Shown here one piece after another: positions 48,642 through 51,589 of a stretch of DNA of 53,934 nt. The position numbers and the translations under genes were made by a program. Positions within the stretch are counted from its first letter, which is position 1. Each line of letters begins with the position of its first letter. Below the pieces are notes generated by a model. The model worked only from the letters and a program-made list of their open reading frames with translations, made no database searches and was not told the origin of the DNA. This DNA comes from an uncultured euryarchaeote (GTDB lineage: Archaea > Thermoplasmatota > Thermoplasmata > UBA10834), in contig CALMQK010000363.1 in the NCBI GenBank assembly GCA_937872085.1, forward strand, positions 1 through 53,934. The letters are read 5' to 3'.

Positions 48642-48893
48642 ATGGCCCAGCAATGGAACGATTTCCGGAGGGCGCTCAGGAGCGGGGACAGGGAGGCTTT
48701 CGACGCTCTCATGAACCGGGCGCGGATGCACGCCTCGGCGGCGACATACGCGATCAGCCTGGACCCGACCGAGTCCGCCCTCCTGTCGATGCTGCTCGAG
48801 CACGAGAAGGAGATCCTGGCCTTGAGGAAGGAGCTGGAGAAGAAAGAGCACGGAGAGGAACAGGATGGGGGGAGGAGCGAGTCTGGACAATGA
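48642..48893 (+). CDS. Small alpha-helical hypothetical protein, translationally coupled to the downstream polymerase gene
   Basis: The ATG lies 4 nt after the upstream stop and its own stop overlaps the polB ATG (ATGA). No recognisable motif. A TTG at 48600 is an alternative start. Confidence 0.55.
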   Translation: MAQQWNDFRRALRSGDREAFDALMNRARMHASAATYAISLDPTESALLSMLLEHEKEILALRKELEKKEHGEEQDGGRSESGQ

Positions 48894-51589
48894 GAGGCTG
48901 GCTCATCGACATCTATCCCGAATACAAGACGAACTCGATCGTCTATTGGGTCAAGACTCGAAGGGGCGCACAGAGGATCGTCGATAGGACTTTCCTGCCG
49001 CAGATATTCGCCCATTCCTCTCCCGAGAAGCTGGATGAGCTGGAGAAGGCGCTCCCCATCCTCGACGCCGTTAAGTCCACCGAGCGGGTGATGAGGCGCA
49101 CATGGCTCGGCGAGAAAGAACGCGAAGTGCTCGCGATAACGATCGGCGATTACGCAAAGGTCGAGGAGGTCGCGCACACGATCGACAATCGCGGGAAGTA
49201 CAAGGATTACTCGCTGTTCAACGTCGACCTCAGGTTCAGCCAGAGGTACATCATCGAGAAGGGTCTCTTCCCAATGGGCTTGCTGGAGTTCAGGCCCAAG
49301 CCACGGATGATAGACGACCCGTTCGAGATAGACTACGAGCTTCCCCCCCTGAACACCACGGAACTGAGGGTTAGGCCCGAGGCGAAGCACGGCATACCGA
49401 CCTTCGACGACAAGTTGCTGTCCGCGAAGGTCGGAGAGCGGACGATCGACGGGGACGAGGAACGGATCCTGAAGGGTATCCAGGAGGCCGTAAGTGCCGA
49501 TGACCCAGACGTCCTCTTGACCGAGAACGGCGACGCGTTCTCCTTCCCATACCTATACCGAAGGGCACGGCAACTGGGACTGCCCCCGCTCCAGCTCGGG
49601 AGGGACTCCGATGACCAGCGCACGGACAAGAAAGGCATGTCCTACTTCACGTACGGGCAGATAAAGTACAAGCCAGCCTCGTACAAGCTCCACGGACGGA
49701 TACACATCGACCGCTCGAGCTCTTTCATGTACATGGAGAGCGGCCTGAACGGCCTCATCGATCTCTCGCGCATCTCCGGCATGCCCGTCCAGGAACTCTC
49801 GCGGCTCTCGCCAGGAACGGCCATCAACATGATGGAGATGAACCAGGCGATGAAGGATGGGTGCGTGATCATGTGGAAGAAGAACCTGCCGGAGAAGTTC
49901 AAGACCGCGGAGGAGCTCGTCATAGCCGACAGGGGCGGGTTCATCTACGAGCCCGTGATGGGCATCCACGATCACGTGCTGGAAGTGGACTTCACGTCCC
50001 TCTATCCCAACATAATGGTCAGGTTCAACATCTCACCCGAGACAGTTATGTGCTCATGCTGTCCCGAGCCCAAGAGGAAGGTGCCAGTCCTCGGTTACGG
50101 GATATGCGACAAGCACCTAGGGCTCATACCGCGCGTGCTGAAACCGGTCGTGGAGCGCAGGACGAAGTTCAAGAGATTGGTGAGGGCCGGTGTCGGGGAC
50201 ACCAAGGTCTACAAGGAGCGCGTGGACATCCTGAAATGGCTGCTCGTCACGTGCCTCGACCCCGAGACGGAGCTGCCGTTCAGGAAGCGTGGCAAGTTCG
50301 ACATATCGTCCATCGGGGACCTCGTCGACGGATATGCTGGGAGACGCTCCAACGAGATAGACATCGCGGACGGGCTCGAGGTGTTCGGCGTCGACCAGGA
50401 CTTGGATCCGGCGTTGAAGCACGTGCAGAATGTGTTCAAGTTCCCTGCGCCCAAGCACATGATCGAGCTCGACCTCGGGAAGAGCAAGCTGAGCCTCACT
50501 CCTGACCATCCATGCTATGTCACCAACGGTCACATGCTTGAGCTCCGGAGGGCGGATCGGATCGCCGCGGGGGATCATGTCCCAGCACTCCTCCCTCTCT
50601 ACAGCCGCGAGAGCAGGGCGGGGAACCATGTCGCACATCTTCGCGTGGAGTCCACGAGGAGGGTCAAGGCGAGGTCGGACCACGTCTATTGCCTTGGCGT
50701 CCGCGAGCCACTTCACGGGTTCGCCCTCGCCAGCGGGGTGCTCACACACAACTGTTTCGGATACACGGGCTACAGGAACGCCCGGTTCGGCAGGATCGAG
50801 TGCCACGAGGCCATCAACGCGTACGGCAGGGAGCTGTTCCTGCAGACCTCCGAGATAGCGGAGGCGCACGGGTTCGAGGTCCTGCACGGCATCGTCGATT
50901 CATTGTGGCTCAAGGGAAGAGGCGACCCCGAGAAGTTCTGTGAGCACGTCTCAGGGCACATCGGGATCCCTCTCGAGCCCGTGGGGATCTACAAGTGGCT
51001 CGTGTTCCTCCCGGACCGCGTGCACGGCGTCGGCGTGCTGAACAGATACTATGGGATGTTCGAGGACGGCAAGTTCAAGCTCAGGGGGATAGAGCTCAGG
51101 AGACGCGACACGACCGACATTGTGCGCGACATGCAGAACGACCTGCTCTCCCATTTCTCGAAGGCCTCGGACGCCCAACAGTTCATCGAACTGGTCCCAT
51201 CCGCTCTGGACGTCGTTGACCGATATGTCGAGACGCTAAGGTCTCAGACCGTCCCTCTGAACAAGCTCCTGGTCACGAGGAGCATCACGAAGAAGCTCGA
51301 CGAGTACAGGCAGTTCAACGACGGGGTGGCGGCCCTGATGCAACTTGACGAAGAAGGCTTCGAGGTGAACCCGGGAGAGGCGATACGATACCTCATCTGC
51401 GACTGCAGGAGCAAGGACCCGAAGAGGCGCGTGAAAATCGATTCGTTCATCACGGGTGATGAGGGATACGATGTGGATGCTTACGTCGATCTCCTTCTCC
51501 GCGGGGTCGAGGGGATGCTGCTGCCGTTCGGATACGACAAGAAGAGACTAGCGGAAATCTTCGGCGCGAGGAGCCCGCGGGGGCCTTGA
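48890..51589 (+). CDS. polB: Family B DNA polymerase homolog with inactivated exonuclease and diverged polymerase motifs, interrupted by a mini-intein
   Basis: Collinear with Pfu-type PolB. Exo II reads [11 protein letters not shown] (D to S), Exo I reads NTTE, and the Exo III region is deleted. Motif A DFTSLYPN is intact. Motif B reads [10 protein letters not shown], motif C HGIVDS, and KxY reads LNRY. Confidence 0.85.
   Translation: [899 protein letters not shown]
50252..50752 (+). mobile_element. 167-aa mini-intein (no homing endonuclease domain) inside PolB motif B
   Basis: Begins [10 protein letters not shown] (block A), has LTPDHP (block B TxxH), and ends VLTHN followed by Cys +1. Removing it restores [19 protein letters not shown], collinear with KLLANSFYGYYGYAKARW. 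Confidence 0.8.

Follow-up and report, generated by a model that had tools for sequence, protein, structure and literature searches.

The B2 group of archaeal family B DNA polymerases, defined in PMC2527604, PMC4104785 and PMC7544198, was described by Rogozin et al. 2008 (PMC2527604) as a family of inactivated archaeal PolB paralogs and is today named PolB2 or B2. Its genes occur in an operon with those of iRadA and PPB2, an arrangement reported by Makarova et al. 2014 (PMC4104785). In their analysis of this operon, Timinskas et al. 2025 (PMC11791011) set out the MGRT arm of PPB2 with its Arg3 and Arg9, the D(K/R) motif of PolB2 and the complex. The locus considered here lies on contig CALMQK010000363.1 (assembly GCA_937872085.1), the whole 53,934-nt stretch of which is hereafter called the window, and comes from the metagenome-assembled genome (MAG) of an uncultured Thermoplasmata archaeon (1.78 Mb, 391 contigs, 84.6% complete). 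The polymerase gene at 48890-51589 belongs to the known archaeal PolB2 (B2/Dpo2-type) family, of which it is an unremarkable member in its published operon, and its product is probably the catalytic subunit of a specialised polymerase with iRadA and PPB2, active, non-proofreading and involved in damage tolerance.

Purified Dpo2 of S. islandicus and S. solfataricus showed robust nucleotide incorporation and no detectable exonuclease activity; the enzyme is poorly processive and inserts inefficiently opposite lesions, with efficient extension of mismatched and lesion-paired termini (PMC8764526). According to Kazlauskas et al. 2020 (PMC7544198), the B2 group has one conserved Asp in motif C and a non-conserved Exo I, and Exo III is missing in the B2 and G2 groups, while high activity is noted for primer-independent PolBs without the first Asp of motif C. 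Calling the family "inactivated" remains right for the exonuclease domain but no longer for the polymerase domain. The first-pass annotation of the window had placed the gene among the inactivated PolB paralogs; the family membership stands in the sense of PMC2527604, but an inactive polymerase is no longer the accepted view (PMC8764526), and the operon partners went unrecognised there.

The iRadA-PPB2-PolB2 operon

The two genes upstream of the polymerase gene, iRadA and PPB2, define the system. The gene order is iRadA, PPB2, PolB2, with overlapping start and stop codons:

47858-48637, + strand: iRadA, the first operon gene, a RadA/Rad51 core of 259 amino acids (aa) without the N-terminal domain and with Walker A replaced
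48563-48583, + strand: QMTLDEF, a candidate PCNA-binding PIP-like sequence motif (QxxLxxF) near the iRadA C-terminus
48600-48893, + strand: PPB2 (arCOG07300-type), 97 aa, TTG start, with the N-terminal arm MGRTVATYR
48890-51589, + strand: PolB2 precursor, 899 aa with an intein and 732 aa spliced (assigned by Pfam, PDB, NCBIfam, structure model, tree and alignment)

The open reading frame of the polymerase extends over 48653-51589 (+ strand) and is the single long frame in the list of open reading frames. ATG 48890 is most likely the start of the gene, since it overlaps the stop codon of the upstream gene (ATGA), and this start yields a 12-residue N-terminus common to more than 100 homologs. 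The 899-aa product matches the Pfam models DNA_pol_B (PF00136, E 6e-24) and DNA_pol_B_exo1 (PF03104, E 6e-9), and its top match among solved structures is P. abyssi PolB (E 6.5e-55 in PDB, E 1e-110 with a profile). The AlphaFold2 (AF2) model, with a mean confidence score (pLDDT) of 79, gives Foldseek TM scores of about 0.68-0.73 to PolB3 structures. The protein has the family B polymerase fold with N-terminal, exonuclease-like, palm, fingers and thumb regions. The highest-scoring NCBIfam models for the spliced protein are NF004416 (471 bits) and NF004418 (466 bits), compared with at most 168 bits for the canonical PolB models, and the product name of both (type B DNA-directed DNA polymerase) is the one given by the NCBI annotation pipeline PGAP to haloarchaeal PolB2 genes. 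Membership in these two models was rejected, the scores being below cut-off and the models (equivalog, subfamily) narrower than the PolB2 group.

The nearest homologs are found in Thermoplasmata/Thermoplasmatota MAGs, followed by Methanomassiliicoccales at 47-52% identity. In the maximum-likelihood tree an SH-aLRT support of 100 separates the 14 PolB3 rows from the 61 PolB2-like ones, among them the studied gene and the H. marismortui polymerase; the two groups were set by how the sequences were obtained, the outgroup consists only of PolB3 from the same class, with neither PolB1 nor Sulfolobus Dpo2 included, and the only PolB2 anchor tied to the literature is the H. marismortui pNG600 gene, drawn from a plasmid collection and also used for the comparison below. 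The tree follows Thermoplasmata and Methanomassiliicoccales relationships.

The iRadA protein is matched by Pfam Rad51 at E 4e-8 and by NCBIfam RadA at E 1e-11, both falling well short of the cut-offs, with only its residues 26-190 matching RadA 82-252, and in the alignment with P. furiosus Rad51 (1pzn) the P-loop GEFGSGKT is replaced by DSDNGYVS. In related loci the iRadA homologs carry a conserved NQxTLDEF/Y at their C-termini and sit directly upstream of PPB2/PolB2, and PIP motifs at iRadA C-termini are reported in PMC11791011. The PPB2 gene is preceded by a Shine-Dalgarno-like run GGGGAGG (48587-48593) and overlaps both the 3' end of iRadA and the PolB2 start. Residues M1, G2, R3, T4, T7 and R9 of PPB2 are invariant in 28 homologs, and its AF2 model of moderate confidence (pLDDT 68) consists of three helices (4-25, 28-47 and 56-85). 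A PPB2 homolog is located upstream of the polymerase gene in 69 of 79 distinct related loci, with 8 of the other 10 having less than 1 kb of upstream sequence. The match to the operon of PMC11791011 extends to Arg3 and Arg9 in the MGRT arm and to the D(K/R) motif in a loop of the polymerase.

The start position of PPB2 (x of xGRTVPTYR), TTG in the studied gene, is ACG in 20 of 70 related loci (L013-L015, L017-L023, L025-L028, L040-L042, L070, L072 and L073). Eight of these 20 contain no ATG, GTG or TTG between the upstream in-frame stop and GRT, and in L042 a TAG immediately precedes the ACG; the AGGGGGGA run is retained 8-12 nt upstream of the start position. Since the conserved N-terminal arm must be translated, the sequences suggest initiation of PPB2 at ACG or else a +1 frameshift from iRadA. 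The promoter scan relied on a bacterial consensus, so its output says nothing about an archaeal sequence.

Polymerase motifs and the motif B intein

Motif states were counted in a MAFFT alignment of the 61 PolB2-like rows (the gene and 60 relatives) with the 14 canonical PolB3 sequences, including the copy from the same genome. The features of the polymerase gene are as follows:

49523-49555, + strand: degenerate Exo II, 11 residues, with Ser218 at the position of the catalytic Asp
49622-49636, + strand: TDKKG, the PolB2-specific D(K/R) motif (D246 and K247, in RTDKKG), in a flexible loop that follows the exonuclease-like domain
49694-49780, + strand: shortened Exo III region (GRIHID...LSRISG), about 45-56 residues fewer than in canonical PolB
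49724-49738, + strand: possible FxxxE remnant of Exo III (F279xxxE283), a conserved motif paired with YxxxD by MAFFT
49988-50011, + strand: motif A, DFTSLYPN, intact, with metal-ligand Asp367 and steric-gate Tyr372
50234-50251, + strand: N-extein half of motif B, KWLLVT, with Lys449 kept and the canonical Asn replaced by Val
50252-50752, + strand: mini-intein of 167 aa (aa 455-621), with Cys1 (CLDPETEL), block B TxxH (LTPDHP) and C-terminal HN
50753-50761, + strand: C-extein half of motif B, CFG, with the canonical Tyr replaced by Phe and a +1 Cys native to the family
50885-50902, + strand: motif C, HGIVDS, with Tyr replaced by His and the first Asp by Ile, the distal catalytic Asp670 being kept
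51038-51049, + strand: LNRY in place of KKRY, the minor-groove sensor of the primer terminus, by alignment to PolB3

Asp is found in 61/61 PolB2-like rows both in motif A and at the distal position of motif C, so the persistence of these two residues, noticed in the first-pass annotation, extends to the whole alignment. Together with the motif B Lys (60/61) they form the invariant or near-invariant residues of the family. The motif A aromatic position is Y or F in 61/61, and in motif B the Asn position holds V in 59/61. The C-extein half of motif B has C in 35 and S in 22 of the 61 sequences, followed by F in 60. Motif C has H in 60/61 and I or L in 59/61, compared with Y.DTDS in 14/14 PolB3, and KKRY, likewise present in 14/14 PolB3, is represented in PolB2-like sequences by L, P or A, then N or T, then R and Y. 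The alignment with canonical PolB3 bore out each substitution column by column against the copy from the same genome, and the intact motif A as well as KWLLVTCFG, HGIVD and LNRY all lie where they had first been read. D367, D670, Y372 and K449, on which two-metal catalysis and dNTP binding depend, are all kept in the sequence. In family B polymerases the nascent base pair and the minor groove at the primer terminus are monitored by the Asn and Tyr of motif B and by the two Lys of KKRY, the residues lost here.

The exonuclease domain is degenerate, having lost the Exo I and Exo II carboxylates and most of the Exo III region, which agrees with the dead exonuclease proposed in the first reading. 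The Exo II catalytic column contains D in 14/14 PolB3 and L, I, V, D or others in PolB2-like sequences; the eleven residues originally proposed to replace Exo II are indeed located there. The register of Exo I is ambiguous, with MAFFT setting LRVRP under FDVET, alignment by eye setting NTTEL there and a profile hidden Markov model (HMM) leaving the region unaligned; in neither register are the conserved acidic residues present, so that the earlier reading of FDIET as NTTEL holds for the loss of these residues and is uncertain in register. From GRIHID to DLSRISG there are 16 residues compared with 72 in the PolB3 of the same genome, i.e. 56 are lost, and the net loss relative to P. abyssi is about 45, close to the loss of about 55 residues first reported between GRIHID and LSRISG. 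The F279xxxE283 motif may be either a degenerate remnant of Exo III or an alignment artefact, as the HMM alignment gives it no support. The D(K/R) loop has the family consensus RTDRKG, within RTDRKGKSYFTYG, and in the AF2 model pLDDT is below 50 at residues 245-247 and 251-259. In PMC11791011 the D(K/R) motif contacts the PPB2 arm and the segment before it binds iRadA.

Motif B is split by the mini-intein and, for that reason, exists only after splicing. All the splicing residues of a class 1 intein are present (C455, T537..H540 in LTPDHP, H620-N621 and +1 C622), and two intein models score above their cut-offs (TIGR01445, 28.9 bits vs 24.5; TIGR01443, 16.0 bits vs 15.6). Excision of the intein gives a 732-aa protein with a contiguous motif B (20-residue stretch), and in the intein-free homologs P0076, P0103, P0104 and P0121 an uninterrupted 13-residue stretch constitutes a precise in-frame empty site. 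The +1 Cys is also found in Thermoplasmata and haloarchaeal proteins without an intein. No homing endonuclease domain was found, as the 899-aa protein gives no endonuclease match in Pfam and 167 aa is too short for one, in keeping with a mini-intein.

Of 74 related loci, 35 have an empty site, 33 a mini-intein of 161-201 aa and 6 an intein of 461-528 aa, and homologs of 1250 aa bear the LAGLIDADG domain PF14528 at the same site. It looks like a site with a full cycle of intein gain, degeneration and loss. Almost all genomes of the gene's own taxonomic family carry the intein (two-part matches). The literature searched yielded no description of an intein in archaeal PolB2. The presence of one in motif B of an uncultured Thermoplasmata lineage argues for the functional importance of this motif. 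The Thermococcales "pol-b" intein site is presumably one residue upstream of the PolB2 site (KxxxN|S). The intein resembles the intein part of the PolD DP2 model NF011302. A long PolB3 frame in another genome (G010), considered as a possible intein-bearing one, proved to be a high-GC open frame that contains no intein.

The genome also encodes the PolD large subunit and a canonical PolB3 with FDVET, YNIDGFD, YCEWD, DFRSMYPS, KILMNSFYG, YSDTDS and KKRY, so the check for PolD and another PolB called for by the first-pass annotation was positive for both. The canonical gene runs off the end of contig C78 and resumes where contig C20 starts, with an 18-codon overlap (PFFSHGMKKRYVGRMVWP), which is an assembly break and not a split gene; its product shares 24% identity with the studied polymerase (E 4e-28). 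PolB2 is present in 121/201 sampled genomes of the class and in 88/140 high-quality ones, compared with PolB3 in 24/25 genomes, and is on these grounds considered an accessory, widely maintained gene. The ratio of nonsynonymous to synonymous substitution rates (dN/dS), calculated against L029, the nearest relative with DNA available (dS 0.20), is 0.075 for the extein, which is under strong purifying selection, and 0.24 for the intein. No Y-family polymerase (PF00817, IMS) was detected in this MAG and 25 genomes of its family, three of them single-contig, with controls giving the expected matches. Because of this, PolB2 may be the lineage's only specialised polymerase, carrying the whole translesion load.

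Proposed role and competing readings

Since the catalytic residues are kept, the checking residues are lost and Dpo2 is active, we infer an active extender polymerase. PolB2 would be co-transcribed with its partners iRadA and PPB2, and splicing out of the mini-intein would rebuild motif B (13 residues), giving a 732-aa enzyme which, judging by Sulfolobus Dpo2 biochemistry, should be an active, non-proofreading and distributive polymerase. Loss of the residues checking the base pair and the minor groove would permit extension of mismatched or lesion-paired primer ends. The complex is envisaged as PolB2 with one iRadA and a PPB2 trimer, with the MGRT arm of PPB2 inserted between PolB2 and iRadA, and could be recruited to PCNA, possibly via the C-terminal QMTLDEF of iRadA. 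The expected role is damage tolerance and mutagenesis rather than bulk replication.

A number of points weigh against this assignment. The activity is extrapolated from the Sulfolobus enzymes to euryarchaeal/Thermoplasmata PolB2, and complex formation, PCNA binding and damage induction are likewise inferred. The substitutions in motif B, motif C and KKRY are radical and, on sequence alone, compatible with low or absent activity; splicing of the intein is predicted from sequence as well. The two best NCBIfam models fall short of their curated cut-offs even with the intein removed (471 vs 516 bits for NF004416 and 466 vs 692 bits for NF004418), the tree rests on same-class PolB3 and one literature-tied PolB2 anchor, and no orc1/cdc6 adjoins the operon, the two copies in the genome being located on other contigs.

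The polymerase could instead be an inert structural or regulatory subunit which binds DNA, iRadA, PPB2 or PCNA and does not synthesise DNA, as in the 2008 reading and as proposed in PMC2527604 and PMC4104785. This would fit the replacement of the Tyr and first Asp in motif C, of the Asn and Tyr in motif B and of both Lys in KKRY, the degenerate exonuclease and the likewise inactivated partner iRadA. However, Sulfolobus Dpo2 has the same motif C pattern (IID) and is a robust polymerase (PMC8764526), primer-independent PolBs missing the first motif C Asp are active (PMC7544198), D367, K449 and D670 are invariant or nearly so over 61 diverse sequences, a constraint that a purely structural role would not readily explain, and the extein dN/dS is as low as 0.075, so that we regard an inert subunit as unlikely, though the most serious of the alternatives. 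A polymerase with altered active-site chemistry, offered as the second option in the first-pass annotation, is the better reading given the activity of Dpo2, the motif A and distal motif C Asp in 61/61 sequences and the purifying selection. Decay of a PolB copy drifting after duplication, with the intein marking a dead gene, would account for the many lost canonical motifs next to a fully canonical PolB3 in the same genome, but is effectively refuted by the selection and conservation data and has next to no probability: the 899-codon frame is intact and its extein constrained, identical substitutions are fixed across hundreds of homologs, the gene is kept in 121/201 class genomes with a conserved operon, and the intein retains all its splicing residues.

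Haloarchaeal homologs are often carried on megaplasmids and the PolB2 phylogeny suggests horizontal transfers (PMC11791011), as might be expected of a polymerase belonging to an integrated mobile element (a casposon, a plasmid or virus protein-primed PolB or a primer-independent PolB). Against such an origin, GC content stays even along the whole window, flanking synteny is shared by the closest relatives, neither an integrase nor terminal repeats were noticed beside the gene, the tree follows Thermoplasmata/Methanomassiliicoccales relationships and the gene is accompanied by iRadA and PPB2 rather than by genes of an element; this explanation was rejected on context, conservation and selection as highly improbable. 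Retention of the intein without an endonuclease and under purifying selection (dN/dS 0.24), together with the lack of detected Y-family polymerases in the 26 genomes, also leads to a more elaborate proposal, in which conditional splicing of motif B gates PolB2 activity post-translationally and PolB2-iRadA-PPB2 is the sole translesion polymerase, both inserter and extender. Redox-sensitive Cys1 and Cys+1 could then couple oxidative or DNA-damage stress to activation of a mutagenic polymerase; we consider this combination speculative and rather improbable.

With an active, non-proofreading PolB2 as the preferred reading, the finding mainly corrects the annotation: the gene would encode a subunit of a damage-tolerance complex, neither a dead paralog nor an undescribed module. 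The motif B intein and the absence of detected Y-family polymerases are modest additions to the picture of PolB2, and the understanding of the family is unchanged.

The genes flanking the operon are the following:

44772-47636, - strand: a 954-aa transmembrane, coiled-coil protein with a KaiC-like C-terminal domain (PF06745, DUF7504), divergent from iRadA
51967-52320, + strand: a small membrane protein, downstream of PolB2 and overlapped by the winged-helix regulator gene
52268-52795, + strand: a tandem winged-helix regulator (HVO_0163-type N-terminal helix-turn-helix and ArsR-like domain), downstream of PolB2

Only the 18 closest Thermoplasmata loci keep the KaiC-like gene as a neighbour, in some cases with extra DNA inserted in between; in Methanomassiliicoccales and haloarchaea it is not a neighbour. 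It was rejected as a component of the system and is read as lineage synteny.

Comparison with known systems

Compared by description, Sulfolobus Dpo2 (PMC8764526) and the studied PolB2 are both family B polymerases with a degenerate exonuclease, a D(K/R) loop motif and an operon with iRadA and PPB2, and both have only the distal Asp in motif C (IID in Sulfolobus, IVD here). Unlike Dpo2, the studied protein is euryarchaeal, about 730 aa long, contains an intein and has a less reduced exonuclease domain; polymerase activity is proven only for the Sulfolobus enzymes. A functional analogue is Pol zeta (Rev3), also a B-family enzyme with an inactive exonuclease which extends mismatched or lesion-containing termini; it differs in belonging to the Delta-like clade, in its canonical DTD motif C and in its accessory subunits Rev7 and Pol31/32. 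Canonical PolB3, represented by the P. abyssi structure 4flt and by the C78/C20 copy of the same genome, has the same overall fold (Foldseek TM about 0.68) and agrees in motif A, in the Lys of motif B and in the distal Asp of motif C; it differs in keeping FDxE, NxxxFD, YxxxD, KxxxNSxYG, YxDTDS and KKRY.

The H. marismortui plasmid pNG600 carries upstream iRadA-like and MGRT-PPB2 genes and a polymerase (WP_011222486) with 32% identity to the studied PolB2 over 728 columns (E 3e-117). Its PPB2 (MGRTNPTYR) is 48% identical to the studied one (E 1e-17) and its iRadA-like protein 29% identical (E 3e-7). Motif B is shared as KW(I/L)LV(A/T)CFGY (KWILVACFGY in H. marismortui) and motif C as HGIVDS. 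The pNG600 locus differs in lacking the intein, in having an extra small gene between PPB2 and the polymerase, in its adjacent orc1/cdc6 and in being plasmid-borne.

The type 1a (iRadA-PPB2-PolB2) operons of Thermoplasmata/Methanomassiliicoccus, as listed in the supplement of PMC11791011, have the same gene order, organism class and MGRT arm. Inteins go unmentioned in the portions of that supplement searched for them, whereas the family of the studied MAG has the motif B mini-intein. Motif C is HGIIDSLWV in these operons, and they share with the studied PolB2 the pattern HGI(I/V)DSLW.

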